Source of the DNA: an uncultured Methanosarcinaceae archaeon
GTDB taxonomy: Archaea > Halobacteriota > Methanosarcinia > Methanosarcinales > Methanosarcinaceae
Assembly (NCBI GenBank): GCA_963833425.1
Contig: CAWHXP010000005.1
Location: 128,001-192,000 of the forward strand
Reading direction: 5' to 3'
Length of the DNA: 64,000 bases
The notes beneath the pieces were generated by a model. It had not been told where the DNA came from. It ran no database searches and saw nothing but the letters and a program-made list of their open reading frames with translations. Made by a program: the position numbers and the translations under genes. Every line of letters begins with the position of its first letter. Position 1 is the stretch's first letter. Of this stretch, positions 18,642 through 38,509 are shown piece after piece.

Positions 18642-20291
18642 TTAATTTTTTAACCCTACGGGTTTGATTGGTAAAGTGAAATAAAAAGTTGAACCTTTGC
18701 ATAATTCTGATTCAACCCATATACGCTCACCGTGCCCTTCTACAATTCTCTTACAAATTGAAAGTCCTATTCCTGTTCCAGGATATTTTTCCCTGCTATT
18801 TAATCTTTTAAATATTTCAAAAATTCTTTCCGAATATTGTGGATCGATCCCAATTCCATTGTCTTTCACTGAAAATATCCATTCACTCGCTTTTTTCTCT
18901 ACAGCGATATAAATTTTGGGCGCTTCTTCATTGTGGAACTTTATTCCGTTGAGTATCCGATTCTGAAACACCTGACCCAGCTGGGTAGAATCTGCTATTA
19001 CTTTAGGTAGAGGATCATGGGAAATAGTAGCTTTCTTTTCGTTTATAATCAATTTTAAATTGGATAACATCTGATTCAAAATAAATTCACTACTCGCAAT
19101 TTCAGGTTCTCTAGTACGTTTAGTCACTCGAGAAAATTCTAAAAGATCAGTTATCATATTTTGCATACGGGCAGCCCCTTAAACAGCGAAGTAGATGTAC
19201 TTATCAGCTTTCTCATCGAGATTACCTTGATATCGCCTTTGTAAAAGCTGCAAATAACTTGTGATCATCCTCAGGGGTTCTTGTAAGTCATGAGAAGAAA
19301 CGTAAGCGAATTGTTCTAATTCTTCATTTGAGACGGCAAGCTCTTCTAATTTCAATTTTAAAGTTTTTTCTGCTCTTTTACGCTCAGTGATGTCAGTGAG
19401 CATGCTCAGAGAACCCACAAACTTGCCATCTTTATCAAAAAAGGCTTTATAACTTAGATGAATCCATAAAGATGAGCCATCTTTATTTATTAATTTCAAG
19501 TCATAGCTATCATTGATACCTTGCCGGCTCTTTTCCAGATTCAGTTTGACGACATCCTTACTTTCTTCACTTACGAAGCTCCATATAGGTTTTCCAATAC
19601 CTTCTTCGAGAGAATATCCGAGCATATCCGTCAGTTTCTTATTGGCATAAGTAACTACAGCTCCTTCATCAATTATGAGTATACCTTCGTTTGCTGTTTC
19701 TACGATGTTGCGGTACTTTTTTTCACTTTCAAGAAGTTTTTCTTCTACTTTTTTAAGCTCCGTCAAGTCTGTGACCACAATGCACCAGGCATTCGGTGAT
19801 TCCTTAGCCCCAAATGAATTAATAGATAGGTATACTGGCAAAGATATTTCACCTTCCGCCAGGAGTTTGATTTCCCTCTCTCCCTTCTAGTTCTCTAGGA
19901 GTGCCTTGAAAGTGATCTCGTTCTCAGGTGCAATGAATCGAGAGACAGATGTGCCAACTATGGTTTGTGGTGGCATCCTTAGAAGTGCTGCAAAGTGACG
20001 GTTGCAGTAAAGGATGGTACTATCAAAGCCAAGGGTGGCTGTACCTTCATTCATTGTCTCCACTAGGGTGCGATACGCACGGTCGGCATTATCCAGGGTA
20101 AAGATCAAATCCTCTTCTTGTTCGTGGAATACCAGAGCATCCAGATCCTTTTCTCTAATTGCGTGCTTTAGTTCATCACCCTCTTCTAGACAGACTCTCA
20201 AATTTTGTATCTCAGCTTTTAAGGCATGATTCTCATCCAATAATGCCGTATAAGTGATGGGTTCCTGACCTTTTTCTTCCCTAGAACTCAT
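18642..20291 (-). pseudogene. PAS-PAS/PAC sensor histidine kinase (Cph1-like kinase core) with two in-frame stops
   Basis: Three track ORFs lie in one frame, separated by TAG (19887-19889) and TAA (19179-19181). Motifs: [29 protein letters not shown]-box, DNGIGI and GTGIGL. Confidence 0.88.
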
Positions 20292-20326
20292 ATTTATGTT
20301 GTCCTTTCAAAAATCGATTACCCTTT

Positions 20327-20685
20327 CTAAGCCCTAAATTTTATGTCTAGTCCAACCAGAACCCTTTCGGTATCAGCCATGCTGCCTATGATCTTCTTCA
20401 AGGGCAAAGGAAGTTCTTTTATGAGAGTGGGAGCTGCTACTATCTGGCCATCTTCAGCGTAAATTGGATCCTGATAGATATCAATAACCTCAAGCTGGCA
20501 TTTGCCTGACAGGTGTTCTTCACATATCTTTTTGAGATTGTTTATCGCTTGCACAGATTTGGGGCCCATACCTGCAACATAGAGGCGCAGAACGTATTTT
20601 TCCTCCCTCTTTTGGCATGGGCTTCCTCAAAAGCTGATGTACAATCCTTGACATCCAATATCTTGGTCTCTTCAGTTTCGTTCAT
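20327..20685 (-). pseudogene. kaiB: KaiB-family protein 3 (frameshifted)
   Basis: MNETEE... shifts frame near 20605 into KYVLRLYVAGMGPKSVQAINNLKKICEEHL...EVIDIYQDP...AAPTLIKELPLPLKKIIG. ATGA overlap with the upstream kaiB. Confidence 0.88.
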
Positions 20686-21030
20686 TGGGTATCACTTCTA
20701 GAGTGCAAATCCAAGCCTACCAGAACACGTTCCGTATTTGAAAGATCTCCTATAATCTTCTTTATCGGCGTAGGAAGCTTTCTAACTAGCGTAGGGATAG
20801 CTAATATCTGATCCCCTTTAGCTAGTTGAGGGTTCGCCAGGAGATCTATAACCTCTAATACTGTACCTGCCACCCAAGTGCTCCGTGCAGATTTTTTTTA
20901 AGTTAGCAAAAGCCTCCAGGGTCTTCCTAGTCTGGCCAGCTACATATAGCCTCAAAATATAAAAATCCTGATCAGATATAGAAGACTCAATTGGCACAGA
21001 GTCATCGTCATTTCGTGCTACAACTTTCAT
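20682..21030 (-). pseudogene. kaiB: KaiB-family protein 2 (frameshifted)
   Basis: [35 protein letters not shown], frameshift near 20858, then [48 protein letters not shown]. Confidence 0.9.
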
Positions 21031-21273
21031 AATTTTTCCACCATTAAACTTAATGAAATTACACATTTTCTGGACAATTCCTTTTCCTACAACTTTTGAA
21101 ACCCATAAATTTATAGCTAAGACGAATTCTAGGACAATGAAAATAGCAAATCACACTTGGTTTGAGATAACTGCCGATATGAACTACGGTAGATATAAGC
21201 CTGGAGATCATATTTAGACTTCTTGTTCCTCACGACATCGGCTTTTTCGGCTTTTGATCCTCTGTGGGAGTCT

Positions 21274-21630
21274 TCACTGCATATATTTTTCAGTAACAAC
21301 ACTAGTAAAATTATCACTACGTAAATCCAGAAACTCTAGAACCCTTTCTTGATTGGAGAGATCTCCTATGATCCTCTTTCCAGGGTAATTCTTTCTCACA
21401 AGGGTAGGAATAGCTATGATCTGATCCTCTCTAGCAAGATTTGGGTTCTTTGTAAGGTCTATAATCTCAATATGGCACTTTTGAGCGAGATATTTAGAAC
21501 ATATCATTTTTAAGTTATCAACAGCCAATTGGCTCTTCATATGATTGGCTGCTACATAGAGTCTCAGTTTGTAAAGATTCTCATCTTGCTGGGCTTGCCT
21601 GGTTGAATCTTTCGGTTGTTCTGTATCCAT
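21274..21630 (-). CDS. kaiB: KaiB-family protein 1 (open frame)
   Basis: YKLRLYVA...[27 protein letters not shown]...RIIGDLSNQERVL. Confidence 0.9.
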   Translation of the reverse strand: MDTEQPKDSTRQAQQDENLYKLRLYVAANHMKSQLAVDNLKMICSKYLAQKCHIEIIDLTKNPNLAREDQIIAIPTLVRKNYPGKRIIGDLSNQERVLEFLDLRSDNFTSVVTEKYMQ

Positions 21631-21652
21631 CGTCGAAGTCTCCCTTGCCCAC

Positions 21653-23005
21653 TTAGACAATGTCTGCTTTCCTTATTCGTGCCATCGCACCTTTATTTGC
21701 TTCCAGCGCCTTCCTCCTGAGTGCATCTTCGTATGTGAGCTTATCAAGCTCCTCTTTCTGCATCTCAACCTCGGAGCTCAATGCTGTTATCTGAGCATCC
21801 AGGAATTTTAGCTTACTTTCCAGTTCTCTTTTCCTCTGCACCACATTTTTGCTTTGAATTATAGACTCAGCCATCTCCTTAGCTTCCTGGACAGCTCTGG
21901 AAGACCCCATAAGCAGGCCTCCTGATGGTCCAAGGTAGACATCATGAATCTCTATGCCATTATCAGTCACCAGATATTCTCTGATCTGGTTGGAGTGTTT
22001 CATACCTCTTGACTTGATCACCGATATTCCAAGATTGCGCTAGCTATCATTCTCAAAGAAACGAAGATTGATCCAAGTATCCATAAGAGATGATATACCC
22101 TGAGCATTTATGCCATCTATATTTTCATTTTCTACCAGACTAGTGCATACTGCAGTGATATTCTTGAGCTTCAAGTAATCAACGACCCTTGTGAGCGTGA
22201 ACTTAACATTGGCTTCATCACCTACATTGATCATGTTGGATATAGGATCTATGACCAAGACTGCTGGTTTGAACCTATCTATCAGTCTGTGCATGGTTAC
22301 CAAATGCATTTCCAAACCATAGGCCATGGGCCGTTAAGCACTTATTTGCATTAAGCCAGTATCGACATAGTGCTGAAAGTCTATACCTATAGATCTCATA
22401 TTCCTGATTATCTGGCTTGGAGATTCCTCGAAAGCAAAGTATAGGCAGCTCTCTCCTCGCTCGCAGATAGCTTTGGCAAACTCGGCTGCAAAGCTGGTCT
22501 TGCCTGTGCCGGCTGTTCCGGAGATTAGTATGGTTGTGCCACGATAGTAGCCCTGACCACCAAGCATTGTATCCAAGCGCTTTATGCCCGTGGAGCCCCT
22601 CTATGCAGATACTTCATGCTCCAGACCTAGGGATGTAATTGGCAAAACAGATATCCCATCTTCTTCTATCAGGAAAGGATACTCGTTAGTACCGTGTTTG
22701 GATCCCCTGTACTTAATTATCCTCAGGCGTCTGGTGGCTATTTGATTCTCCATCCTATTATCGAGAAGGATAACGCAGTCTGCAACATACTCTTCAAGTC
22801 CGTATCTAGTGAGAGACGTTTCTCCCCGTTCGCCAGTGACTATAGCCGTCACGCCCTTCGTATTAAGCCAGCGGAAGAGCCTACGTAGCTCAGAACGCAG
22901 TATAGCTTCATTCTTGAACCCAGCGAATAAAACTTCTAGAGTATCGATAGCCACACGCTTGGCATCTATAGAATCTATAGCCGACCCAAGTATGATGAAT
23001 AGACC
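21653..23005 (-). pseudogene. kaiC: KaiC 3' portion (rest of CI domain, CII domain, C-terminal coiled extension) with three in-frame stops
   Basis: One frame: GLFIILGSAIDSIDAKRVAIDTLE...YGLEEYVADCV...KYRGSKH...GTAGTGKT...FEES...ISSLMDTW...KSRGMKHSNQIRE. Stops at 22601-22603 (TAG), 22334-22336 (TAA) and 22040-22042 (TAG). Confidence 0.93.
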
Positions 23006-23017
23006 TTATAGGTCTAT
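22999..23017. other. Integrase-proximal attachment site of the integrated element
   Basis: Palindrome ATAGAC-CTTATAG-GTCTAT exactly where KaiC homology stops; its core CCTTATAG matches CCTTCTAG at 40222-40229. Confidence 0.85.
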
Positions 23018-23059
23018 ATACTAAAAATTTATAGTCCTTAACTTCTATTAGATATATAC

Positions 23060-24271
23060 ATGACTAAATCTGTTGATGATGTTCATTGTATTGATGCGGA
23101 TTATTTACGCGCACAACATAAATTGAAAAATGCAGATATTGGGGAAGAAAACAAAGCGTTGATTGAAAATTTTTCAATTGCTCTTCGACGGGAAGGAGCA
23201 GTAAAAACAACAATCACGTGGTACTTGTATTATGCAACCAGGATGGTCGAGCAACTTCAAGAACTAGGATTCAATGAGACCTTGGACAAGCTGGACCAGA
23301 ATACTTTTGATAGGTTGCTTATTTTTTGTGAAGATGAAAAGAAATTCTCTCCAGGCACTATCAGAAATTATAAAAAATTGATCAAAAAATTCTTCAGATG
23401 GTCCACAGGTGGTAACCAGCCTAAATGGATTATGGATCTGAAGCTAAAAACAATTGAAAGCCCTGTGCAACCTTCGGACATACTGACCAAAGATGAGTTC
23501 ACCCGACTCCTTGAAGGCTGTAGACATCCAAGGGATAAAGCTATTATCGCTGTTCTTGCAGATAGCGGAATGAGAGTAGGGGCTATGATGTCCTGCAGGG
23601 TTAAAAATGTAGAGTTTAATCAATATGGAGCTATGATTTATCTTTCAAAAACAGGGGCTAACAAGACAACACCTGCAAAGGGGCTACCACTCACTTGGAG
23701 CGCGGGGTATTTGAATCAGTGGCTTGCAGTTCATCCTTTTCACGAAGATCCAGAAGCTCCCTTATGGATTACCCTTAACAAAAATAAAGAAGCTGTGAGT
23801 TATAAAGCTATCCGAAAAATGATAAAGACTACAGCCGAAAAAGTAGGCATCAAGAAAAGTATACATCCACATTTGCTACGACATATGGCTATAACAAACT
23901 GGATTTTAGATGGACTTAATGAACAAGAAATTAAGCACAGCGCGGGCTGGAGTCGGGGCAGTACTCAAATGTTCAAAATTTATGCAAATTTCACTGATCA
24001 CGAAATTAACAATAGTATTTTTGAGAAATATGGGCTCAAGACTGAAGACAAAAGACACGTTACACTTAAAAGATGCCCACGGTGTAATAATGTACTAAAA
24101 TCAGACGACAAATTTTGTAGCCAATGTGCACTGGTTCTCGATCAAGAAACCGCTCTAAAACTTGAAAAAGATAAAGAAAAACTAGATTTATCATTCTTAG
24201 AAGTTTCCAGTGTTGACCCAAAGGTTTTGGAAAAAATAGCAATCGAAGTCAAAAAACTCCTAAACCAGTAA
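23060..24271 (+). CDS. Tyrosine recombinase/integrase with C-terminal Zn ribbon
   Basis: Catalytic R (SGMRVG), HxxR (HLLRH), AGW and Y (FKIYA) all present; CPRC...CSQC ribbon. Confidence 0.95.
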   Translation: MTKSVDDVHCIDADYLRAQHKLKNADIGEENKALIENFSIALRREGAVKTTITWYLYYATRMVEQLQELGFNETLDKLDQNTFDRLLIFCEDEKKFSPGTIRNYKKLIKKFFRWSTGGNQPKWIMDLKLKTIESPVQPSDILTKDEFTRLLEGCRHPRDKAIIAVLADSGMRVGAMMSCRVKNVEFNQYGAMIYLSKTGANKTTPAKGLPLTWSAGYLNQWLAVHPFHEDPEAPLWITLNKNKEAVSYKAIRKMIKTTAEKVGIKKSIHPHLLRHMAITNWILDGLNEQEIKHSAGWSRGSTQMFKIYANFTDHEINNSIFEKYGLKTEDKRHVTLKRCPRCNNVLKSDDKFCSQCALVLDQETALKLEKDKEKLDLSFLEVSSVDPKVLEKIAIEVKKLLNQ

Positions 24272-24428
24272 ATAGTTAAGATATGTTCATAAAATTTCCT
24301 TTTTGTTCCTAATTATTGAATATTTCTGCTAATAATATGAAACTACTTTAATTGTATAGGGTAAAACGCTTGCTGGTTTAAATTTATAATTGTTTTTATT
24401 TAATCAAAAAAGTTGGAAACTTGTCAGA

Positions 24429-25491
24429 TTAATCTGTATCAACATTTGGTACCCAGCTTTCAAACCTATCCTGTTTCTTCTGTGCCATTTCGCGCGTTTT
24501 ACGAAATATCATTTTAGTCATGTCTTTGTTAAAAGTATGGTAAGTTACGTATTTTCCTCCTTTTTCTTCGAATTCTCTTTCTACTTCTTCAAGTTTGGGA
24601 TTTTCAATGGAAATTAATTTTTTCCCTTTAAGAAAACTAGGTACATCTTTACGCTCTCTATAATAATTTCTTAATCGCTGAATTTCTGCATCTGATATTT
24701 CGTTTTTTGTTTGTTTTAAGTATTCTATGGCTTCATTATTCGCTTGTCCTTTCAACATATCTATGGAAACACATGCTTCAAATGCTATATTGATACTGAA
24801 GGTTGTTCCACATATTGCCATCCAGTTGTTTGGATTACGAAGATATTCCCAACTAGTTAGGTGTATAACGTTTTCTGATAATTCAATTAATTTTTTAATA
24901 TCAGCTATTAATTTATTTTTGTCATTGGTAAGAAACAGTATGAAAAATTCAGGGGATAACCATAATTTTTCCTTAAACTTTTGTTTGGTTTTTTCAAAAA
25001 GTGTATCTTCTCTATGTTCCACCCAATCCTTTCGACTTGAATCATAAGTTGAATATGAGCCAAGTGTGGTAGTTATTGTAAACTTTATGGGTAAGCCTTT
25101 ATTTACTCTTTCTCCAAATGTGCTATCCAAATAATCCATATCATTTGAACCATAAATTAAATCTGAATACTCGGAAAATATGCTTTCGAGGATGTGATCG
25201 TTCCTTTGCATTTTTGACAATAAGTGTGGATATTCTTTCAGTATACGACTTAGATTCTGAATACTGAATACAATTGAATATAATTTAGGAAGGTTTCCGA
25301 ATTTTTCTGATTTTACCTTCTCACCTTCAATGCACCCATATGTTTCTAGTTTTGTTAATCTCTATAAATCATATTGTAACGTGGATTACCTTTTGGATCT
25401 ACAAATTTTAGTTCCTTTGCTGACTCTCCAGTAGTTTTTGAAGATTCTAATAGACTACCTAAAATTAGCCTTTGAGTCTTTTCTTTTTCAT
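24429..25491 (-). pseudogene. Winged-helix regulator-like gene with frameshifted N-terminus; 263-aa C-terminal part open
   Basis: Upstream of the 24429-25220 ORF, shifted frames read KTQRLILGSLLESSKTTGESAKELKF...YNMIYRD / KLETYGCIEG... and LYSIVFSIQNLSRILKEYPHLL, which runs in frame into the ORF. Confidence 0.55.
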
Positions 25492-25799
25492 GATTATCTT
25501 CTGTCATATTCTGTAGATAGTTCTAATTTCTATTATAATATGTTTGGGAATAACAGATTAATGTCTAATAGTCGACAACTTGTGATATTTTGTCGATTAA
25601 AAATTAATATAAATGTCTAACGCCTATTCTAGCTTGTATTAAAATAACAATAAGGGAAAGTATGCGAATGAGCTGTAAAGTTAAAATAAAAATTTTGAAT
25701 ACATTTGATTATTTGTTTATCCCGATGTGGCATTTTCCCCTAAATTCGTGTGATTTGTCGTTACAGCCAATTAATAGACTATCCCATTAAGGTGAAAGC

Positions 25800-25934
25800 A
25801 TGTTTAGATTTGGAAAAAGAACTGTGATAAAGCAAGGTGGGAGTTATATGATTTCGCTCTCGATGACATGGATGAAAGCAATGGATATAGATGTAAAAAC
25901 TGTGATGATCGACATGGACAGCGAAATCATCTGA
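25800..25934 (+). CDS. AbrB/SpoVT-like small DNA-binding protein (3' end possibly frameshifted)
   Basis: Manual translation MFRFGKRTVIKQGGSYMISLSMTWMKAMDIDVKTVMIDMDSEII after an AAGGTGA RBS; swapped-hairpin pattern. Confidence 0.65.
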   Translation: MFRFGKRTVIKQGGSYMISLSMTWMKAMDIDVKTVMIDMDSEII

Positions 25935-26046
25935 AAATTATGGCAGGTGACACTCGCAATGAAAACACAGTCTCTTAAATTTACACCCAAGAGTTTGATA
26001 GCTGTAGGCTCGAAAAGATCTAATGCATCCTGGAAAAGGGAAACAA

Positions 26047-26268
26047 ATGTACGATCTAAAACCAAAAACTGTAGCTATGTTTAAAAAATTTTACACGGAA
26101 TTTCCCGAATTGATTAATTATCGAATAAAGTGCGGAAATATGTATGAGAAGGCTCAGGCAATATTAATAAAAAATGTTGCTGAGAGTGTTTCGCAAAATC
26201 CCGCAGCGGCCAAGCAGTCGGAAGTTTCGCAAAACATCACAACGGATGCCTACCTTCATAACAAATGA
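26047..26268 (+). CDS. Hypothetical protein of the element
   Basis: Open frame MYDLKPKTVAMFKKFYTEFPELINYRIKCG..., co-oriented with neighbours. Confidence 0.55.
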   Translation: MYDLKPKTVAMFKKFYTEFPELINYRIKCGNMYEKAQAILIKNVAESVSQNPAAAKQSEVSQNITTDAYLHNK

Positions 26269-26484
26269 TCCACGAGAACAGATCGACCCAGAAATGAAAA
26301 GTGATGCACAATGAAGAAGATAGTCCACAAAGTAATAATGATTTTCCTTTTTAGCCCTGCCACTAACAATTACATGCAAAGCCTAAAGACTTTTGATTCC
26401 AAAACGAATATTTTTTAGGATATCTATTAATTTTGATGGTACTGAAAGCGTTAAATTTCATTCTAAAATATAGATAATTATAAA

Positions 26485-26889
26485 GTGATTATTATGGATT
26501 ACAAAAATGAGTTAACTCTTCAATGCAAAGAAAATTTAACTTCGTTATCAGACGAGTACATGATTGGAATAACTGACGCCAGTTATAGGCATATCGATGA
26601 AATACTTAATTCTTTATCCATAATGTTGGAGAATCATTTATCTCAAGTAAACGCTCGTCGGGAGCCAAAAATATATGGAGTACTCAGTTCACTGACACTA
26701 AAAACGATTATGTTATCTGACTTAATTACACAAAGCGCAGAAGAATATGTATCCTTGGACATTCTTAAAGTGTTACTAGAAGGTGTGGCGGTGCACGATA
26801 TCTTCCAAAAAGGGGATTCTGTGAAAATCGAAGTGCTGGAAGATAACGCATTGAAGATTTCCGGTGAACAAACTAGAGAAAAGCGATAA
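26485..26889 (+). CDS. Hypothetical protein of the element
   Basis: 134-aa open frame with protein-like composition. Confidence 0.6.
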   Translation: MIIMDYKNELTLQCKENLTSLSDEYMIGITDASYRHIDEILNSLSIMLENHLSQVNARREPKIYGVLSSLTLKTIMLSDLITQSAEEYVSLDILKVLLEGVAVHDIFQKGDSVKIEVLEDNALKISGEQTREKR

Positions 26890-27070
26890 AGATAACAAAA
26901 ATTGAGAGATTCGAGCCCAGGACAGCTTGAGACCTGTCCTAGGTGATTAGGTTCGTCATCTTCAGCGACTGAACTACTATAAATTATACTTCATGGTTTA
27001 TAATAATATCTTATTTTGATGACGGTTCTAATGCCTATGGGTTCTTTGTTCTCTCATAATTCAAGAGAGG

Positions 27071-27355
27071 ATGAACTCCATGACATATTCTATATCTAGG
27101 CAAACTAATATTAGTAATTTTTTTCACAGTTATGATAATACCAAATCTCAAATTACTTTCGAGTCCCTTGTCACATCCACAGATGGATACAAATGCAAGG
27201 TGCCTTGTCAAAATAATAATTTTTGTTATTCTTGTCAAAGACAGGATTGTTCTAGACGTACCGATCCCTATGACTTGTGGTGGATTCCAGAAGAGCCTGA
27301 TGATTGCTCAAGAGCAGATATTGCAAGAACTTATCGCTTAGGAGAAGGGTTTTAA
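27071..27355 (+). CDS. Small Cys-containing hypothetical protein
   Basis: GAGAGG RBS; CKVPC...CYSC...C; stop overlaps the next ATG. Confidence 0.5.
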   Translation: MNSMTYSISRQTNISNFFHSYDNTKSQITFESLVTSTDGYKCKVPCQNNNFCYSCQRQDCSRRTDPYDLWWIPEEPDDCSRADIARTYRLGEGF

Positions 27356-27894
27356 TGCCAAGCTTTTCAAGTCTGGAATATAACTTTAGAGAGGATCTAC
27401 GATCCATTATCTCTATAAACTCCACACGGAGCCTGAAATATATCAGGAAGAGCAGCAGGACAGGAAAGTATAGGAGAATGGCTCATCTACTTTTGATGCT
27501 GGCATATAACTGGTCTGGATCTTCGAGCCTGGTCTCTATGAATATGCTGATGCTTAAGTTCTTGAAGAGCATTAGAAGGCATGCAGGATTCGAGAATAGA
27601 GAGAAGATAGGCAAGGAAACACAAGCAACAGACTACATCGTGAACTTCACCTTAAACGAGGTCTTCCAAAGTAATGAATTTAGTCTTCGCCAATGCATAC
27701 CAGAAGCAGCATGTGCTAGAATACGTTATTTTTTTATGATTTTGGGGGTATGGAATGAACTTTGATTCTCTTGATAAGGTTTATTCTGAGCACAACAGAA
27801 GAATTCCAATATCTCATAAATTTAAAACGAGTGCCTGATCAGTCCTTTTCGATTTTATCGATTACGATCTGCAGCCTGAAGGAAGGTTGGAAAG

Positions 27895-30128
27895 ATGAGT
27901 TATGACACCGCAATGCTTGAAGCTGCATTAAATTATTCAAGATTAGGACTGATAGTGCATCCTTTACTGAACCCCAATGCACCTGAAATAAACCCTGAAA
28001 CAGGAAAAGAACAAAGCCCAGGTAAAGGAGTTTTGGTAAAAGCCTGGCAGAAAAGGGAAAGTGCCTTAACGGAAAGAGAAATAGAAAAATATTGGGGACC
28101 TAGTAGGAGTTCTTACTTTGAGAATGCAAATATTGGCTTGCAATGCGGGAAAAGATCAGGTATTACCCTAATCGATGTGGACGACTGGAACCCTGCAATA
28201 TGGAACGAACTCACAGCCGGATTATCTCTAGATAATTGGCTCATGTCAAAGAGAACAACGGACCAGGGCCATATTTTCTTTAAATACATCGAAGCTCTGA
28301 AAGCTCAAAAGCATCATGATTTAGGCATAGAAATTTTAACAGATGGCAATAATGCAGTCCTACCCCCAAGCAGGCATAAAAGCGGGAAAATTTACTCATT
28401 TAACCGGGAAATCAGGGCATTTGAAGATATACCAGAAGTGCCTGAAGAACTAATAAACAGGCTTAATGCCCTGTTTGTAACCAATAATAAGTTAAAAGTG
28501 ATCTTGTAAAAATGCAAGCTCTGTCTACGTGAAAAATTCAAGGCCCATCAGGAAAGCCCGGATATCAAGGAATTGCACACCAGCACAGGCAGACAGTTAA
28601 CCCTGTCGCTGATGGCAGACATGAAGGCAAATGGTGCAGACCCTGAAGTTTTACACCTTGCCTGTAAATACCTTTTTAGAGATAATTACACCCGGTCACA
28701 CAGTGATTATGAATTGGGTATGGACGGAAGCAAAATCGAAAAACCTTGGAAATGTGAAACTATACAGAGAGCGTTAGGAAGCATCATACTTGATAAAGCC
28801 CTTAAATCAAAATGTGATAATTGTACTTTCAGAGAGCAGAGAAAACAGGTAGATAACCAGAAGAAACCCGAGCCAGAAGCTCAAAAGGATAATCCCCTAA
28901 ATATAGACTATGATGAAATGGACCTAAGCCCCGAACTTATCCAGAAGGCAGATGAGGAAGCAGACAGGATATTAAGAGAAGGTGACCCTATAGACTGTAT
29001 ACTGAACACAATATCAAAAAAGCATGTCGGTGACCGGGATACACAAGAAGCAATGTGCATATCAATAGCCTGTCAGTGTTGTCTTAATACCGCAGGCTTG
29101 CAAATATCCGTAAATGGTACTTCTGGCTCAGGAAAGTCACATGGAATAAAAACACATTTACATTTAATTCCTAAAAAACGGAAACGCATAACGGGGTTAA
29201 GCGCGAAGGCTGCTTATTATATGAATTTAACCCCTGGTATTATTATTTTTTCGGACGATAAGGATCCTGACCCTGCATTTGAAGAAGTCATAAAACAGGC
29301 AACAACGAACTTTCAGGAAGAAACTTACTACACAACGGTTAGAGATCAAAAACAAATATCTTTGGTAATCCCATCCCGTATAAATTGGTACTTAACGAAC
29401 GTCGAAAGCTTCGTATCGGATCAATTGCTTAATCGCCAACTCACCTTTGATGCAGACAGTAGTCCTGAGCAGAAAAAAAGGATATTTGATGCACAGAAAC
29501 ACGAAGCTGCAATCGGTGGGAATGGGCAGGAGATGAACATTGAAGTGCTTATATGCAGAAGACTGTATGGAGCACTTAAACAGAATTTATTTAAGGTTAA
29601 AATACCCTTTGTGGATAGGATAGACCTGCAGGATACAAGTAATTCGCGTATATTCCCAATGTTCCTTGATATGGTCGGGGGTTTGCTGCTTTCAAATGTA
29701 AGCAGAGAACCTTTGACGACGGTGGATATTTACTAGCTGAGGTTGAAGACTTTGAAAGAGCAAAAAGATTATTCGAATCTCAAAAAGAAAACACAGTAAC
29801 AAAAATGAACGAAAATGAGAGACAGATAATCCAATGTATAGCGAGTAAAGGTAAATGCACAATTAACGATATATCAAGCTATACAGACATTAAATATCAA
29901 AGTGTGAGACGAGCCTTGGTTGGTAGGACAGACAGAGACGTCGATGGGCTCCTTGACAAGATTAAGGGATTAAAAATGGAAGAAGAAACCGATACTAATT
30001 ATGAGAGAGCTGGAGACATATTAAGAAGCAGTAGTGGAAAGAAGGTTCTTAAGTTCAGCATAGACAAATCAAAGTTTGATTACTGGTCACTCTTTGATAA
30101 GGAGTTTATCTTCCTGAAGGCCGCCTGA
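27895..30128 (+). pseudogene. Replication protein: Prim-Pol (AEP) domain, Cys-containing middle domain, P-loop NTPase and C-terminal wHTH; one nonsense codon and one frameshift
   Basis: NIGLQCGKRSGITLIDVDD, GHIFFKY and AVLPPSRH (bifunctional primase-polymerase motifs); in-frame TAA at 28507-28509; Walker A GTSGSGKS; a frameshift near 29680 joins the 29805-30128 wHTH ORF. Confidence 0.85.
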
Positions 30129-30156
30129 TCTATGCACAAAGGCAACTGATTCTTTT

Positions 30157-30440
30157 ATTCCCCAATTTCCCTTTTTTTCCAAAATATTCCCATTGTTTTC
30201 CCATTAAAACTTAATCAGTTGACATTTTGTTCCCAAAAACCCGAAAATGCAAGAAAAAAAAAGAAAATACACTTTTGACATTCTAATATTTTGGATATTA
30301 CTTTAAAATATCATATATCATTTTTTTACTTTTGGGAACATGACTCCCTTTTTTTATGAATTTTAATTACCTTGTTATTGTTTTTATATTATTTTTAATG
30401 GGAATATAATGGGAAAATAGCGGGAATAATTGGGGACTAT
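30157..30440. repeat. Nested inverted arrays of TTCCCA motifs around an AT-rich centre (candidate replication origin)
   Basis: TCCCCAATT...TTCCCATT...TTCCCATTAAAA on the left mirrors TTTTAATGGGAA...AATGGGAA...AATTGGGGA on the right; inner 11-bp inverted repeat TGTTCCCAAAA (30228) / TTTTGGGAACA (30330). Confidence 0.6.
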
Positions 30441-30711
30441 TGGAAATATAACTAGCGGAAGACATACTTAATTAAAAAAGATATATGAATGAACAGGGTT
30501 AGACTAAATGTCACATTTTTGTATGTTATATTTTTAAAATTTCCCCGTTTAAACTTCTTCCATCAAAATTTTCTACATAACCAGCTATTCAAGCATCAAA
30601 ATATTATCAATAACCATTACCATTACTAAGTGATAATAAAGTATAAATACTAATAAATCGCATATAGTAGCGCAGTTTCTTGAAAATAGACGGTCTGGTG
30701 GATCACATAAT

Positions 30712-30936
30712 ATGAAAGGCGGTAAAACAAGATTTCAACAGAAGTTTACAGAAGACATGTTCCTGAATGCTCTAGCAATTGACAGTATCAAGTCAACTGC
30801 GACTATTATGAATTTAGTAGGATGCAGCAGGTCCACAGCTAAAAACATGCTTTATAAGCTTGTAAATGAAGGTAAAGTAAATAAAATAGAAATTGAAGGC
30901 GACGGTTACGGTTGGCAGAAAGTGAAAGGTGATTAA
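30712..30936 (+). CDS. Small winged-helix protein
   Basis: STATIMNLVGCSRSTAKNMLYKLVNEGKV helix-turn-helix with a YGW wing. Confidence 0.75.
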   Translation: MKGGKTRFQQKFTEDMFLNALAIDSIKSTATIMNLVGCSRSTAKNMLYKLVNEGKVNKIEIEGDGYGWQKVKGD

Positions 30937-31327
30937 AATGAGTTTCATTGATAGCTACAGACAAGAAATTGATCCAAAAACTGCGTTGCAAATAATGCCA
31001 GAATTAAAAGAAGATTATCTCCAAGATCGTCCGTGTAAATGGGAAGAAGATACGATACAGCTTTGGAAAGTCGCAAGTGCACTTATTGAAGATTGTGACC
31101 CATCAATCGAGAAACGTTCTTTTTTGTGTACTCCGGTATTTTTTGACAAAACAGGTAAACATAGATATTTCACATCACACGAAAAAACAATGCAAGAGCA
31201 AATAGCTGAGTTTGATCAACAAGTTGGTGTTATTCATGAATTGGGTTGCACTATAACCGATAAGGATGGTAATACAGAAGCAAAAGTTTGGCTTCTGCAG
31301 ATTGAGACCGAAATTAATCATGGGTAA
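30929..31327 (+). CDS. Hypothetical protein of the element
   Basis: 132-aa open frame overlapping the wHTH gene; AAGGTGA RBS. Confidence 0.65.
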   Translation: MIKMSFIDSYRQEIDPKTALQIMPELKEDYLQDRPCKWEEDTIQLWKVASALIEDCDPSIEKRSFLCTPVFFDKTGKHRYFTSHEKTMQEQIAEFDQQVGVIHELGCTITDKDGNTEAKVWLLQIETEINHG

Positions 31328-31739
31328 TTCGTAGATATTTGACTGGAAAGTTGACTAATTGACAATCACTTCTAACATTCAATTTTTTTGTTTAATTACA
31401 GCCATAAGTCTTTCCACACTAGTAAATAAATTATTTAGTTTTTATTATTTTAAAGTAATAAAAATATATGAAAAATCTCGAGAACCTATCCCAAGTTCTC
31501 AGTGCATAGATTTATGGAGGCTTGGTTCTGTCGAAAAAATGGCTTAATCTGGGGACACTAGAGTGACTTTTATTAGGAGTCCCTTAGAAGATATGATTAG
31601 CCTAGTCAAAAAACGACTGAAAATGGCTCATTGTTAATTAATCTAGTCAAAGCCTTGCCTTAATGCATAAAAGAACTAAAGAAACATTTAATACAAGATT
31701 CACTAATATTAACTATTAAAAATAAAAAACGGTGTTATC

Positions 31740-32189
31740 ATGCCACGTCCTACAAAGCTCACTCCCGAAGTACAACAGAAAATCGGTGATGGTGTACCTC
31801 TCGGATTAACTTATGCTCTCGCTGCTAATTCAGCAGGTCTGACTTATCAGGCGTTCAATGATTGGATGAAACTGGGAAGAAATTCAACATCAGGAAAGTA
31901 CTTTGAATTCTATCAACATATTGAAAAATGTAATGCTGATGCCGCAAAGGTTCTTCTTGAACGGTTAAATAATGCAGCTGCAGTTGGAAATTGCCAGGTT
32001 TCCATGTGGATTTTGGAGAGAAGGTTCCCTGAAGAATTTGGACGGAGAGTATATAGAAAAACTAATGTTGTTGCAGAAAACCTGAATCAAAATGTCGAGA
32101 TAAGCTTCAGGGACGCAGACAAAATTAGAAAACAAATTCTAGAGAAGTTTGATCTGGTTGCAGAAAGTAATGAGTTATCAGTTGATTAA
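31740..32189 (+). CDS. Terminase small subunit-like HTH protein
   Basis: MPRPTKLTPEVQQKI N-terminus, AANSAGLTYQAFNDW helix-turn-helix, helical middle and WILERRFPEEFGRR: a pattern recalled from phage TerS-like proteins. Confidence 0.6.
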   Translation: MPRPTKLTPEVQQKIGDGVPLGLTYALAANSAGLTYQAFNDWMKLGRNSTSGKYFEFYQHIEKCNADAAKVLLERLNNAAAVGNCQVSMWILERRFPEEFGRRVYRKTNVVAENLNQNVEISFRDADKIRKQILEKFDLVAESNELSVD

Positions 32190-32215
32190 TTTTTCAGTTT
32201 AACTTAACATATTTT

Positions 32216-33067
32216 GGTTCCGTTGCAAAAACTTCAAAATAAGCATGTAAATCTATAAGTAATAAATAAAAATCAAAATATTCAAGGAAAATGTACCAAC
32301 ATTATAAAACTATACCAAACAATTGATTAATGTATTTGACTTCATTAAGAACAGAGTATTTTAGATTCTTGATTTGTCCTTTATTGATCATATTCATGGC
32401 TTCAATTCCTTTTAAAGTCTTATTAGCAGTAGAAAAGACTGAAATCCTAACATTGGATTAACGATTCGCTTTATAGATCTATGATCTTGTTCTATACTGT
32501 TATTCAAATGCTTGATTTATCTAATGCCTACGTTTTTAGGTAGTATTTTATCATTTTTCAGTTCATCTATAGCAGGGGGATAAGCTGGATTCTTATCAAC
32601 GGCTATTACTCTTGGAATTTGATTATGGTTAGAACTCAAAGCTTTATTAAAGAATCTCTTCGCTACTTTTCTATTTCGTTTTGAACTTAACATGAAATCA
32701 ATTGTATCTCCATTTGAGTCAACTGCTCGATAAAAATAGTCCCATTTACCTTTTACTTTGATATAGGTTTCAGCAACTCTCCACGAATCATTTGTTGGTC
32801 TTAAATGTCTTCTTATCTTCTTTTCTATTTCAGGGGAATATTGATGTACCTATCTCATTATAGTACTGTGATCAACTTGAATTCCTCTTTCTATCATCAT
32901 TTCCTTTAAATTTCTATAGCTCAATGGATATTTTAAGTACCATCTCACATTCAATAGGATAATTTCTCCTTCATAATGCTTCCATTTATAGGAATTAGAT
33001 AGCATATCACTATCTTTGGTTTTTTTATTCTATTGTATCATTAGAAAGGATTTTTTGCAACGGAATC
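32216..33067 (-). mobile_element. IS6-family insertion sequence with pseudogenised transposase
   Basis: Terminal repeats GGTTCCGTTGCAAAAA / TTTTTGCAACGGAATC; 852 bp; from 33005: YKWKHYEGEIILLNVRWYLKYPLSYRNL...DHSTIMR*V...SWRVAETYIKVKGKW..YRAVD. Confidence 0.93.
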
Positions 33068-33336
33068 TAATTTTCAACTGGTTTAAAGGGAAGGCACTTA
33101 TTAATGTTGCCCTTAGAGCTTATCCAAAAAGTGTTGTAACCTACTGTAATATTTACGGTTCGTCGCTGTTCCTAAACCTTAAAGAGACGCATCGTGCTTG
33201 CAATCTGCATGTTCATAGGCCAGGAATTTTTGCATTGACCGGCCTGGCTCGCAGCATGGGAACTGTCCATGAAGCAATCCTTTCCTCGCTCCTTATAACC
33301 TTTGTTACCATTTCAATGATCCAGATCTCTTCCGTC

Positions 33337-33485
33337 GGTTCCGTTGCAAAAATAATTTTACTGCCTTTTTAGGTTATAACTATTGCTTTTTGTATCATTA
33401 TTGACTTGTTTATGGCACATAAATATCCTATATGTGATGTTTTTTACTTGTTTTGTAAAATAGTCAGATTTTTTGTAACGGAACC
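33337..33485. mobile_element. 149-bp MITE with IS6-type terminal repeats
   Basis: GGTTCCGTTGCAAAAA...TTTTTGTAACGGAACC; near-identical to the copies at 62483 and 62676. Confidence 0.88.
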
Positions 33486-33647
33486 AATAATCTTGTAGCT
33501 ATGCGTTCCTGTAAAAATATTAATTTTAACCTAAGACTGTTCATATATAGGCTATCATCCCTTCTTCTGTTTTTAAAGATGTAAGTATAGTTTTTTTATT
33601 TCGGCTTTTATTTTGAGTATCTCTTGTTCGTCTTTTCTTTTAGATTA

Positions 33648-34517
33648 TTATCTAGTGGATACAAATATATAATTATTATTCATATTTTTGGAATCGAGAA
33701 AGTCCTCCTTTAAAATGTAGCCATTACTAAGCAAAATTTTTTGTACTTGTGTATATTTGTCTCCAAAAGATTCAATCCAAATGGTCGGTTTATATTTTTG
33801 AATAGTTAACGAAGCTCCCTTTAATACTTCAACTTCGAATCCTTCAACATCGATTTTGATAAAGTCAATCATTTTTTCATTTATTTTCACATCATCTAAT
33901 TTTTTCAATTTTAAATTTCCATTTTCATCTTCTTTTATCGAAGTACCTCCTAAATTATTACTCAAATTACCATCATAATCTATTGAAGCTCTGCAAGTTT
34001 TTGAACCTAAAGCAAAATTGTATATTTCAACTTTGGAAGTTAATTCATTTAATTCGACATTCTTTTTCAACACATTAAACAAATCATCCCTAGGTTCAAA
34101 AGCATATATATTTTTAGCTCCTAATATTTTCCCAAAATACAGAACATGATTTCCAACATTACTTCCAATATCTATTATAACAGAGTTTTTATCGATGTAT
34201 TTTTCCATAGTTCTTAAGATATCAATCTCATAAAACTTTTTAGTTGTGATAATACTCTTCTGAATAAAATCTCTTTTGTTGGGTAAGAATATTTTTATTG
34301 TCTGATAAGTAAAGTTATTTTTCTTTTCATTAATAGTAAATATATTATCTTTATTGTTAAGCCTGGTGATAGTCTCTAAACAATTAATATATAATTGACT
34401 CATATCATTTAAATAAAGATATATTTGGTATAAATGCTGAATTTTCTTTCCACTAGCACGGGCTTTTTCTTTTCTCTCAAAAATTATCTCTTTTAAAGTT
34501 ATTTTAATTTCCTCCAT
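33648..34517 (-). CDS. FkbM-family SAM-dependent methyltransferase
   Basis: IIDIGSNVGNH, IYAFEP, NFALGS, IDFIKIDVEGFEVEVLKGA. Confidence 0.9.
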   Translation of the reverse strand: MEEIKITLKEIIFERKEKARASGKKIQHLYQIYLYLNDMSQLYINCLETITRLNNKDNIFTINEKKNNFTYQTIKIFLPNKRDFIQKSIITTKKFYEIDILRTMEKYIDKNSVIIDIGSNVGNHVLYFGKILGAKNIYAFEPRDDLFNVLKKNVELNELTSKVEIYNFALGSKTCRASIDYDGNLSNNLGGTSIKEDENGNLKLKKLDDVKINEKMIDFIKIDVEGFEVEVLKGASLTIQKYKPTIWIESFGDKYTQVQKILLSNGYILKEDFLDSKNMNNNYIFVSTR

Positions 34518-34808
34518 CAAAGTGATTATTTTTATTGACTGATCTATTTAACTATGTACTAACATTGTATCCATAGAGAATTATTAAGATTTATGTGCTT
34601 TAAGGAAGAATAACTTCGATATTTGCTTATCCTTGTTGGTACTCTATTCTTGAGGTTGTTTACTCAAAGAAACCTTAATTTTGGACTTATTCAATTTAGC
34701 CTTGAAACCTTTAGACGAAAAAAAAATCTTAGCCTTGAAGCTGTAAGAGTTTTAATTTGATACTTATGTCGCGCTAGAAGGTTCACTGTCATACAAACAA
34801 GTTGCACT

Positions 34809-35246
34809 TCATACTACAGGTACAAAAGCACCGCCATAATCGCCGTTGTTAGGTCTGCTGCGCTTAGCTCTAAAATTTCTGGCATGGGTTGGGCGTCCAT
34901 GGATAACATTTATCGAAACATGCGCTGATGCATTACTGTAATTTGTAATATCATTAGGTATGAAATCAGCTTGTAATGTCTGCGTACCTACACTCAGTAA
35001 AGTTCCTAGGGGTGGAGTATAGACAAAGGTTCCAGGTATTGCGGCTTTAGATGCTGGATCCGAAGCAAATGCATTTAGCTGCGTGCTGTTCAATGTTTTT
35101 CCATAGATTATGTCAGCAGGACTATTCTAAATAATTATTGAGATAACCCGCTGCGTTGCGACCGCTTCAGCTGAGATCCCCACTAGCATTAAAATTATAG
35201 CTGTTGAGACTAAAGCTATCGAATAAAATTTATGTTCATCGATCAC
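34809..35246 (-). pseudogene. Secreted Ig-like repeat protein with one in-frame amber codon
   Basis: Signal-like FYSIALVSTAIILMLVGISAEA, then II*NSPADIIYGKTLNSTQLNA...PGTFVYTPPLGTLLSVGTQTL..DFIPND; TAG at 35127-35129, probably replacing Trp. Confidence 0.6.
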
Positions 35247-36099
35247 GTATTTTTACTCTTTTCCCATATTATTAAAGCTAGAAATAATGAGACAGTTATA
35301 TTTGATATCAAATACTTCTCAATATATTTCTAGTAGTGCAGCATCTCTAATTTTTGATATCCAATAAGCTATTAAAGCGATTATAATTGAAAAATTTTAT
35401 ATTGTTTTTTAGTAATTCTAGATTAAAAATGTTAGAATATTGCAAAAGCAAGCATAAATCATAGAAAGCAATACTTTGGGAAGTAAACTTGTTGCATATT
35501 TTATGTAATATGTGTCTTCATTTATACAAATTTATTGTCCAATTAGAGATAGATAGTCTCTCACTGTGGCTATGAATTAAAATGGGTTTAAGTTATAACA
35601 TTTCAATAGTACATATCATTCCCATAACAATTAGCACTAAACCAGTACCTTCCACATATTTCAAATTTTTCTCGGAGAGCCCAATTTCGATATAGTTGTT
35701 TTGTTTAAGTGTGAACAATATTCCTGTTTTATTAAAAGAACACTCAATCTTAAGTAATGTTTTATCAGGTTTTGTTTCATCAGGTCTTTGTGGGATCGCT
35801 TTTGATTAGTTGGATCCTTGGGTACATATGGGAGAGAACCTATAAACTGGCCGAAAGCCTTGTGTTGTATTTCCATTCCATGGCTGTAATATTGTTCGTT
35901 GCTGTGTCGATACAGGAACGGTGCCTTGTGACCATTTGACACATATGCTTTTGTTCTACACTTGGCGAAAAAAGCACGTGTGTGCATAAAAATATTCAAT
36001 TTTGGATAATTTTTTATAGTTAGACCAGGTGTTGGGACATACCCGATTGCTTGCAGCGAGGTGTGCACATCAAATTTGATGTGAAAAATTCATTATTTA

Positions 36100-36340
36100 A
36101 TTAGAAAAATCAATGATGACCCAATTACACCCTTAAAAGAAAGAAAGCGAAGAGAAAATACAGGAATAATTTCACTTAATTTTTTATAATATTAAATATG
36201 ATGAAAAGAGTGTAGTCGAGACAATTGTTTCTGTCTACAAAAGGAAATTTGGAAAAGTACTTAGGACAAGAAAGTTCCGTAACCAATTGTAAAAGTAAAC
36301 TTTAAACTGATAATTTATAACATAAATAAAGAGTATTTGA
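36100..36340 (+). mobile_element. IS5-like transposase C-terminal remnant
   Basis: Degenerate SVVETIVSVYKRKFGKVLRTRKFRNQ. Confidence 0.45.
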
Positions 36341-36662
36341 ACTAATTTGGATTAAATCAAAGATTTTTACATATACTATCTTCCAAAACAATTTTAGTAT
36401 CAACTTCCTTTTTTTTGTTTAATTTCTTCTATCGTTAATGTTAGCAAATAAGCAGCCGAAACTTATATACGGGACTAGCGTCGAAGTCGATGCTTGCATC
36501 CAATGGGCTGAAGACCTAGTGGTTTTATGCTTTGTCCTATTTAATTGTCAATACACCATTATAGAACTTAAATTGATGCTTAATCTGGAAAAAGATGTCT
36601 ATTTAATGAACTATTATCATTTTTGCCAATATGTTGAAATATAACTAATAAAAATATAACTG

Positions 36663-38159: not shown

Positions 38160-38164
38160 ATTGT

Positions 38165-38509
38165 GGTTCCGTTGCAAAAATTCAAGAAAATATGTAGATC
38201 TATAAATAATGAATAAAAATCAAAATATTCAAGGAAAATGTACCAACATTATAAAACTATACCTAACAATTGATTAATGTATTTGACTTCATTAAGAACA
38301 GAGTAATTTAAATTATTGACTTGTCTTTTTTTAACCGTATTCATAGCTTCAATTACTTTTAAAGTCTTATTAGCAGATCGAAAAGATTGAAATCCTAACA
38401 TTGGATTAACGATTCGCTTTAATAGATCTAAGATCTTGTTCTATAATGTTATTCAAATATCTGGTTTGTCTTATTTCAATATTTTTGAACAAGTTCTTCT
38501 TATTTTCAG
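38165..38509 (-). mobile_element. Second IS6 copy (3' end only), same orientation as the first
   Basis: Begins GGTTCCGTTGCAAAAA and closely parallels 32216-32560. Confidence 0.88.

Follow-up and report, generated by a model that had tools for sequence, protein, structure and literature searches.

A lone small-terminase homologue in an integrative island family of Methanosarcina: a plausible archaeal counterpart of phage satellites

Why does an archaeal chromosome carry, at the far end of the core of an integrated element, a lone gene resembling the small terminase subunit (TerS, gene terS) of tailed viruses, and what could such a gene do there? The question is raised by a stretch of 64 kb from an uncultured Methanosarcinaceae archaeon (assembly GCA_963833425.1, contig CAWHXP010000005.1, positions 128,001-192,000), hereafter the window, in whose coordinates all positions are given unless a contig is named. 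Contigs of this genome (G000, 80% complete) carry C-numbers, and other G-numbers denote related genomes. A first-pass annotation of the window had proposed that positions 23060-32189 represent an archaeal element similar to the phage-inducible chromosomal islands (PICIs) of bacteria. In the layout of a PICI, an integrase is followed by divergent regulators, by a primase or replication gene beside an origin and, at the opposite end, by a solitary terS. This layout accords with the accessible part of the text of Hackl et al. (bioRxiv 10.1101/2020.12.28.424599), and every gene named by the first-pass annotation was recovered in the same order by open reading frame (ORF) listing together with Pfam and PHROGs scans. 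The element is an island of 17,218 bp (22999-40225) that splits a kaiC-like gene, as seen from the two KaiC halves on its sides and from an uninterrupted orthologue in G049. We regard it as a decaying copy of a site-specific integrative and self-replicating island family found in one Methanosarcina species group, for which the reading as a satellite resembling PICIs or the tycheposons of Prochlorococcus is plausible, at about even confidence, and unproven.

The small terminase homologue and its leader

Two adjoining features stand at the border between the core of the island and its cargo.

31740-32189, plus strand: intact TerS homologue of 149 amino acids (aa) (phrog_4102, E 4.8e-22)
31432-31739, plus strand: conserved terS leader of about 300 bp, candidate promoter or packaging (pac) region (alignment A3, 7 copies, 71% mean column identity)

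Four independent lines of evidence, namely PHROGs families, profile matches to solved structures, fold and viral gene context, together identify the 149-aa protein, which by its sequence and modelled fold is truly homologous to the small terminases that tailed viruses encode. The family phrog_4102 ("terminase small subunit") is matched by 60 of 60 members of a diverse family alignment, and 43 and 38 of the same 60 also match phrog_1482 and phrog_309, respectively, both of which are labelled as TerS. The first-pass annotation had called the protein terminase-small-like and suggested a check of the HHpred and Foldseek type, and this check leads to the TerS of Sf6 both by profile and by fold. The profile of the family alignment reaches Sf6 gp1 (PDB 4dyc, 3hef) at E 5.6e-5 over positions 2-121; phmmer with the single 149-aa protein found nothing meaningful in the PDB. 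A single-sequence AlphaFold model was unusable (predicted local distance difference test, pLDDT, of 40), and an alignment-based model with a pLDDT of 82 was used instead. Its six best Foldseek matches are Sf6 TerS chains with a probability of 0.87-0.99 at weak E-values of 0.05-0.6, while VIA-align gives Z 8.4-8.7 for Sf6 TerS and 4.7 for the next entry, with 91-105 residues aligned at a root-mean-square deviation of 4.5-5.7 A. The similarity to Sf6 gp1 in profile and fold extends over almost the whole island protein, whereas the identity is only 17-19% and the island terS has no neighbouring gene for the large terminase subunit (TerL).

The viral relatives do possess such a neighbour. ORF8 of Methanobacterium virus PhiF3 is a homologue (27% identity, E 4e-8) located immediately 5' of the annotated TerL and portal genes, and a Methanosarcina contig of G023 carries a 37%-identical homologue, aligned over positions 3-135, immediately 5' of TerL. 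When IMG/VR was scanned with the single 149-aa protein no relative was found; with the narrower alignment A2 the scan yielded 143 relatives, of which 80 were kept and 40 were tested for the next downstream ORF. This ORF encodes TerL in 31 of the 40 loci, and in the other nine it is a DNA methylase (four), a phosphoesterase (one), an integrase (one) or a protein without match (three). In the window, terS does not adjoin a TerL gene and is followed by an insertion sequence (IS) and cargo. The first-pass annotation had named a non-packaging helix-turn-helix family as the outcome that would speak against its proposal; what the scans returned are packaging TerS families, whose viral members adjoin TerL.

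The leader copies gathered in A3 come from islands with different replication modules. Copies were observed on C2, C7, C18 and C10 and at 39147-39474 of the window, with a conservation about equal to that of the terS gene, and the leader begins with a TTTAAAG..ATATAT box. RNAalifold gave no convincing RNA structure within it (consensus -5.9 kcal/mol).

Insertion site and gene content of the island

The borders of the island are defined by the following features.

22601-23005, minus strand: kaiC-like 3' fragment, first domain (KaiC PF06745, profile positions 109-229 of 231, E 2e-32)
22999-23007: attL core ATAGACCTT, the 9-mer at which the flank alignments to the G049 empty site meet
40217-40225: attR core ATAGTCCTT, from the junction sequences and the G049 alignment
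40203-40586, minus strand: kaiC-like 5' fragment (KaiC PF06745, profile positions 2-109 of 231, E 4.7e-31)

Profile positions 2-109 and 109-229 of the same KaiC domain are thus separated by 17 kb. The orthologue in G049, a related species, is an uninterrupted two-domain KaiC of 582 aa, to whose N-terminus the fragment at 40203-40586 is 89% identical. Alignment of the left flank to this empty site ends at ...GATGAATAGACCTT, that of the right flank begins at ATAGTCCTTCTAGATC, and 9 bp are common to both; the island therefore comprises the 17,218 bp between the attL and attR cores. The bounding repeat is ATAG[A/T]CCTT, the two cores differing at the fifth base. The island was inserted site-specifically by a tyrosine integrase. 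The genes of the first-pass element are all present, but its true span, as given by the 9-bp repeat and the kaiC halves, is 22999-40225 instead of 23060-32189; the core without cargo (22999-32189) measures 9.2 kb. Sister islands elsewhere in the genome start at the equivalent of 22999-23011 and their ends carry ATAGTCCT. On C9, the sister island lies between copies of a 15-bp repeat, TATAGTCCTGAGCGG, which adjoins the 3' end of tRNA-Gln(TTG), and from the sequences we infer that this is the usual kind of site and that the kaiC location is a secondary one. ARAGORN found no tRNA in the 64-kb window, there was no Rfam match across 22000-41000, and a crude script detected no CRISPR array in the assembly.

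The kaiC remnant later gained a nonsense codon at 22601, where the G049 orthologue continues with ...EVSAERVST. The operon 3' of the split gene (18642-22603, minus strand) appears decayed: the second KaiC domain lies in pieces (ORFs 22334-22576, 22040-22327 and 21653-22021, minus strand), followed by KaiB (21274-21660) and by a PAS/HATPase histidine kinase represented by two ORFs (19179-19841 and 18642-19166), all on the minus strand.

The core consists of the following genes and sites in front of the terS leader.

23060-24271, plus strand: tyrosine integrase, 403 aa, with C-terminal zinc ribbon (PF00589 E 1.2e-20, Zn_ribbon_3 E 1.2e-4)
24429-25220, minus strand: conserved 263-aa protein (no Pfam, PHROG or NCBIfam match; best Atlas score 0.81)
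25355-25507, minus strand: small ORF, 50 aa, the winged helix-turn-helix (wHTH) gene of the first-pass annotation (kept in C20, C10 and C9 at 53-61% aa)
25800-25934, plus strand: small ORF, 44 aa, the AbrB-like gene of the first-pass annotation (kept in C10, C20 and C9 at 76-86% aa)
26023-26268 and 26485-26889, plus strand: two small conserved genes, 81 aa and 134 aa (59-70% identical copies in sister islands)
27895-30128, plus strand: gene for a PrimPol, Cys-rich linker, P-loop ATPase and wHTH protein, a pseudogene here (PF09250, phrog_1156)
30129-30711: AT-rich non-coding stretch, putative replication origin (inverted GGGAA-type repeat clusters at 30156-30235 and 30333-30440)
30712-30936, plus strand: 74-aa wHTH-like gene (DIP2311-like_C E 1.5e-5, below cut-off; phrog_18890 "transcriptional regulator" E 6e-4)
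30929-31327, plus strand: conserved 132-aa gene (orf132), overlapping the end of the wHTH gene, no family match

The integrase also matches phrog_1 (E 2e-27) and, under the family cut-off, an NCBIfam XerA-type model (E 1.7e-33), and it has copies at 99, 89 and 81% identity on C10, C20 and C9. Homologues of the 263-aa protein with 36-63% identity are found at the same position in the sister islands and in elements of G017, G040 and G049. The divergent regulators of the first-pass annotation survive as a divergent ORF pair conserved in three sisters, to which no hidden Markov model (HMM) gives the wHTH or AbrB label; the 44-aa ORF further shows 30-43% similarity to sequences on C7, C8, C1, C21 and C18 (E 3e-4 to 0.19). 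Neither the 81-aa nor the 134-aa gene matched a family in Pfam, PHROGs or a further HMM scan. Downstream of the origin region, the 74-aa gene, for which all matches are weak, has copies of 88-93% identity elsewhere in the genome, and orf132 has copies of 83-95% identity on C10 (two), C20 and C6.

The Prim-Pol domain of the replication protein (27895-28509) matches PF09250 at E 1e-14, as compared with E 4e-16 in the intact homologue, and phrog_1156 at E 6e-18. A Walker-A-like GTSGSGKS is visible in the ATPase part, for which the search for a superfamily 3 helicase domain returned no Pfam, NCBIfam or PDB sequence match. Relative to an intact 751-aa homologue of G049 (83-84% identity), the gene contains an in-frame TAA at 28510-28512 in place of a Gln codon and shifts frame near 29676-29686; G049 possesses intact versions of both 751 and 744 aa. 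Read-through of the internal stop with pyrrolysine was ruled out, the codon being TAA and not TAG. The Prim-Pol/P-loop gene and the repeat-rich site of the first-pass annotation are thus both there, the former as a pseudogene. The latter holds a 37-nt inverted repeat (78% complementary, arms separated by 183 nt) and, at 30185-30417, 4 of the 14 exact TGGGAAWA sites of the 64-kb window, and the region is kept in other copies; by these repeats it is a putative iteron-type replication origin. With a stop and a frameshift in the replication gene, and with insertion sequences landed in the island, this copy is probably no longer autonomous.

Beyond terS, the remaining part of the island is occupied by mobile sequences, cargo and a conserved right end.

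32211-33065: IS6/IS240-family insertion sequence, 855 bp, with broken transposase (about 90% identical to C10:94933-94075)
33336-33485: 150-bp repeat resembling a miniature inverted-repeat transposable element (MITE), many copies at 85-93% identity across contigs
33648-34520, minus strand: cargo, FkbM-family methyltransferase (PF05050 E 1.1e-16, phrog_8156 E 1.1e-33; single genome copy)
34787-38163: cargo, duplicate chromosomal segment of 3.4 kb (93.6% identical to C2:291452-294838)
38160-38506: partial second IS6-family copy in the same orientation as that at 32211
38510-38657: second MITE-like repeat, adjoining the partial IS copy
38725-40225: conserved right-end module, 1.5 kb (92-96% identical to the ends of other islands)

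The IS6/IS240 element is present in dozens of copies of about 90% identity in the genome, with terminal inverted repeats GGTTCCGTTGCAAAAA, and the ORF of the copy at C10:94933-94075 matches DDE_Tnp_IS240 at E 6e-48. Two direct IS6-family copies bracket the cargo in the manner of a pseudo-compound transposon, and therefore the cargo was probably brought in by insertion sequences. The two MITE-like repeats have the same kind of termini and dozens of copies genome-wide. Within the duplicated segment, a gene for a Wzx-like flippase (36870-38159; Polysacc_synt E 2e-13) is 98.8% identical in amino acids to its C2 copy, and a piece of about 230 bp (34898-35136) has many further copies in the genome, some arranged in tandem at C3:430385-432343, and probably codes for a repeated domain of a protein. 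The right-end module, with matches at C10:67448-65382, C8:118632-119884 and C9:73305-74177, holds the vestigial terS leader at 39147-39474, a terS start cut after 5 codons, and the attR core.

Sister islands, the spread of terS and competing readings

Three sister copies of the core exist in the same genome, on C10 (about 38 kb), C20 and C9 (about 34 kb). The cargo of the C10 and C9 islands includes nickel/cobalt transport genes, NikR, nicotianamine synthases, methyltransferases, Cu/Zn superoxide dismutase, fumarase, malic enzyme, isochorismatase, dehydrogenases, radical-SAM and TPR proteins, and one IS transposase. The core recurs in two elements of G049 with intact PrimPol genes, where cargo comes next and a TerS-like gene after it; this cargo includes an oxidoreductase, a GNAT protein, a KAP NTPase fused to an FGE-sulfatase domain, radical-SAM enzymes and a peptidase M15. 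The first-pass annotation had recognized no capsid, portal, large terminase, tail or conjugation gene in the 17 kb, and the scans agree: none of these families was found among 17 ORFs of the island searched with Pfam and 15 with PHROGs. No virion family was found either among 33 ORFs of the C10 and C9 islands, or among 26 ORFs of the G049, G040 and G017 elements, which include the two with intact PrimPol. Relatives carrying capsid or conjugation modules had been named beforehand as evidence against the proposal, and neither the sisters nor the intact-PrimPol relatives carry them. Since this outcome and that of the family assignment of the 149-aa protein both leave the proposal in place, the PICI-like architecture and the viral origin of terS stand. 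The G017 element has a DNA methylase at its far end and, at the position equivalent to terS, a 149-aa ORF that proved unrelated to TerS, and the G040 element (G040:C1:3628000-3647999) has giant WD40-repeat genes (1175-1702 aa) on its flanks.

These gene contents bear on the idea that the island is the remnant of a tailed provirus whose structural genes were deleted. TerS is a hallmark of tailed viruses and the copy in the window is decaying, with its pseudogene, insertion sequences and MITEs, as such a remnant might be; but in the sisters and in the intact-PrimPol relatives it is cargo or attR, and not TerL, portal or capsid genes, that comes after terS. On C6 a stretch of about 90 bp, free of cargo, separates a terS copy from the right-end module, and the island TerS proteins form a group of their own apart from the TerL-linked ones (see below). 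We consider a provirus remnant very unlikely. The region C6:142421-168000 contains four copies of the origin region, three TerS-like loci and PrimPol fragments within about 25 kb, all degenerate, which suggests tandem or nested integrations at one site.

In the whole genome, 40 TerS-like matches merge into 32 loci, seven of which are preceded, at a distance of up to 15 kb, by an integrase homologue of like orientation. The modules that accompany terS are diverse. The islands on C18 and C21 consist of an integrase, a family-A DNA polymerase (PolA), a TerS-like gene and then cargo; that on C8 has an integrase fragment, an NrS-1-like primase with DUF3987, PolA, a TerS-like gene and then cargo; and on C7 a DUF927 helicase precedes the TerS-like gene and cargo, with no integrase detected at this locus. 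In these contexts terS recurs while the modules for integration and replication that accompany it vary, and its place is always at the border of the cargo. The cargo of the C21 island (C21:10000-26698), with ArsR, an SBF/Acr3-like transporter, a low-molecular-weight phosphatase, a pyridine-nucleotide disulphide oxidoreductase and a cation-efflux gene, looks like metal/arsenic resistance.

One may ask whether terS and its 300-bp leader constitute a small mobile or repeatedly copied unit that is merely incidental in the island. Such a unit would account for the 16 of the 32 loci that have no match to the core genes of this island nearby (with the query set used), for the vestigial leader and truncated terS start in the right-end module, for DNA similarity between copies that is limited to leader and gene, and for the "transposase" label on some database entries. 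However, HMM scans of the 149-aa protein revealed neither a transposase nor a recombinase domain, the unit has no flanking terminal inverted repeats (only two inverted pairs were found, both inside the AT-rich leader), and the orphan copies are mostly truncated or interrupted by stops, as expected of the remains of decayed islands. A mobile terS unit is thus judged very unlikely.

The intact copies of TerS appear to be under purifying selection, with a ratio of nonsynonymous to synonymous substitution (dN/dS) of 0.14-0.38 in 14 of 15 pairs, values that are rough because dS exceeds 1 in most pairs. In an unrooted tree of 45 self-chosen rows (8 island, 23 TerL-linked viral and 14 database sequences), the 8 island rows and 8 of the database rows are separated from the 23 viral rows by a branch supported at 100/99; a single capture of terS is the simplest reading of this tree, but unproven. 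Across the genus, a TerS-like match (E ≤ 1e-5) occurs in 20 of 59 genomes. Six of these are rich in TerS (G000 with 35, G020 with 12, G021 with 54, G044 with 46, G045 with 30 and G049 with 54 matches), and the remaining 14 have 1-3 matches each. The TerL family Terminase_6N is present in 11 of the 59 genomes and in 0 of the 6 TerS-rich ones, which are 73-92% complete and in which a divergent TerL could be missed.

How such an island might exploit a virus can be outlined as follows. Upon infection by a tailed Methanosarcina virus, the island would excise and replicate from its own origin; its TerS would bind an island-borne pac region, perhaps the 300-bp leader, and recruit the TerL of the helper, and the island DNA, together with the cargo between terS and attR, would then be packaged by headful into helper capsids. 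Possible helpers are indicated by the tailed-virus TerL genes in the 11 genomes mentioned above. Judged by PhiF3, whose record has a length of 32.5 kb, islands of 17-38 kb have roughly the size of the genome of a tailed virus of methanogens. The copy in the window itself is probably defective. In its full form the proposal would be that these are the first archaeal counterparts of PICIs and tycheposons: diversified satellites of one Methanosarcina group, whose terS was captured once from a tailed virus and spread over at least four unrelated replication modules, and which carry as much as about 25 kb of metabolic genes (for metal transport, arsenic resistance and central metabolism) from one methanogen to another in capsids taken over from tailed viruses that are virulent and leave no provirus. 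We hold this full form tentatively, at somewhat less than even confidence. Where the first-pass annotation spoke of a satellite of tailed archaeal viruses, the architecture and the viral TerS have held, while satellite behaviour is a plausible inference.

A number of observations weigh against the satellite reading. No helper, induction, circular form or encapsidated DNA has been seen; the metagenome contigs of four runs, a limited data set of fragments and repeats whose contig joints fall within repeated sequence, bridged neither the kaiC empty site nor a circle junction. The replication genes are broken in all four of the four PrimPol-type copies of the genome, only 6 of the 32 TerS-like loci are full-length and stop-free, and to these may be added the 16 loci without island genes. 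The youngest pair of intact copies (C5/C10, near-identical) gives a dN/dS of 1.4, albeit on very few changes. IMG/VR contains no relative of the island TerS above 50% identity, and the branch between island and viral TerS, with a length of 0.86, would also fit a change of function. Islands of 17-38 kb with large metabolic cargo stand against classical PICIs of 10-15 kb. Finally, Terminase_6N, Terminase_6C, Terminase_3 and TerL_ATPase are all absent from G000, G021, G044, G045 and G049 as assembled (76-92% complete), G020 having been scanned with Terminase_6N alone. In the 80%-complete genome of the window no Terminase_6N, Phage_capsid or Phage_portal match was found, although these models may miss divergent archaeal versions.

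The absence of TerL from the TerS-rich genomes fits the satellite reading and equally its main rival, a non-packaging role of a recruited DNA-binding protein. According to this rival, the island is an integrated, plasmid-like element with no link to a virus, in which a TerS-derived DNA-binding factor serves in excision directionality, as an accessory of replication or partition, or as a regulator, and transfer, if any, takes place by vesicles or another route. Besides the lack of TerL (in the families scanned), capsid and portal genes, it can draw on the tens of terS copies per genome, which is unlike PICIs, on the large metabolic cargo, on the long branch between island and virus TerS, and on a "transposase" label that a JGI source gives to members of the family. 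Elements with a PrimPol-ATPase gene of the same family (52-63% identity) also occur in the Methanosarcina genomes G040, G001, G027 and G018 without a TerS-like match. On the other side, the similarity to viral TerS spans almost the whole protein (2-121 against Sf6 gp1, 3-135 against G023) and thus reaches beyond the HTH part, the intact copies show purifying selection, and terS keeps its place at the core/cargo border across unrelated integrases and replication modules, which makes it hard to tie to one integrase or one replicon. On balance the plasmid-like explanation seems rather unlikely.

The same position of terS, at the border of a variable cargo and pointing toward it, could also suggest a host transduction device, similar to a gene transfer agent or to lateral transduction, in which TerS starts headful packaging into the neighbouring DNA and the capsids come from an unrecognized source. 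Tailed proviruses do exist in the genus, but no capsid source was found in the genomes concerned and there is no sign of any particle, and such a device is highly improbable.

If helper packaging is true, PICI-type parasitism of tailed viruses would extend to Archaea, and methanogens of peat and permafrost would have a concrete path by which to exchange metabolic genes horizontally. The island family is open to testing through its defined att sites, intact terS and candidate pac region, and Methanosarcina is genetically tractable. Even on a non-viral reading, it would call for explanation that a terminase subunit is kept under selection in tens of copies in genomes in which no TerL was found.

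Comparison with known systems

The island resembles PICIs such as the Staphylococcus aureus pathogenicity islands (SaPIs) in its gene order with a lone terS, in the integrase at one end with defined att sites, and in having no capsid, portal, TerL or tail genes. It differs from them in the archaeal host, in the PrimPol-ATPase-wHTH replication protein, in the tens of terS copies per genome and in size, PICIs being of about 10-15 kb as against 17.2 kb here and, in the sisters, 34 kb (C9) and 38 kb (C10). There is no gene homology beyond shared families.

Among Archaea, pSSVx and pSSVi, the satellites of Saccharolobus fuselloviruses, are alike, as described by Makarova et al. 2014 and Zhou et al. 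2025, in their plasmid-type PrimPol replication protein and helper-dependent particles. They depend, however, on spindle-shaped viruses, which possess no terminase, they lack TerS, and their hosts belong to a different phylum. In the part available of Zhou et al. 2025 (bioRxiv 10.1101/2025.02.15.638363), these two are given as the only previously described archaeal satellites, and new haloarchaeal candidates are reported that are again satellites of spindle-shaped viruses. A satellite-virus nature was also proposed for the arCOG07809 prim-pol elements of Methanomicrobia, from their fusellovirus-like genes (Makarova et al. 2014, PMC4158269). Compared by description only, and from the portion of that paper at hand, these are likewise integrated elements of small size that lack capsid genes and encode an integrase and a primase-ATPase-HTH-Zn-finger protein, whereas the proposal was based on genes shared with fuselloviruses and TerS is not mentioned in that portion. 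Krupovic et al. 2019 (PMC6563490), in the sections accessible, state that PICIs were not detected in archaea and that the terminase complex was not identified in non-viral elements. The same sections describe NitKor-E1 of Ca. Nitrosopumilus koreensis, an integrated archaeal element in which terminase genes are the sole tailed-virus genes; it has both TerS and TerL and was read as a provirus relic, whereas the island TerS is alone, recurrent and, as far as the intact copies indicate, under purifying selection. Our literature search found no description of TerS-bearing archaeal islands, and subscription papers may bear on the novelty; as far as searched, the PICI/tycheposon-like island family with TerS is new for Archaea.

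The tycheposons of Prochlorococcus, described by Hackl et al. (bioRxiv 10.1101/2020.12.28.424599), may be regarded as the closest functional analogue. According to the accessible part of that text, they share with the present islands a tyrosine recombinase, interchangeable replication modules, a cargo of nutrient or metal genes and, in some members, terS, as well as integration adjacent to tRNA genes, which here applies to the C9 sister at tRNA-Gln and not to the copy in the window at its secondary site. They belong to a different domain of life, and in the same part of the text the "PICI-like" members with terS or a major capsid protein (MCP) and the carriers of cargo form two categories, whereas here terS and cargo are joined in one island. 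The sister islands of 34-38 kb with their metabolic cargo stand closer to tycheposons than to PICIs of 10-15 kb.

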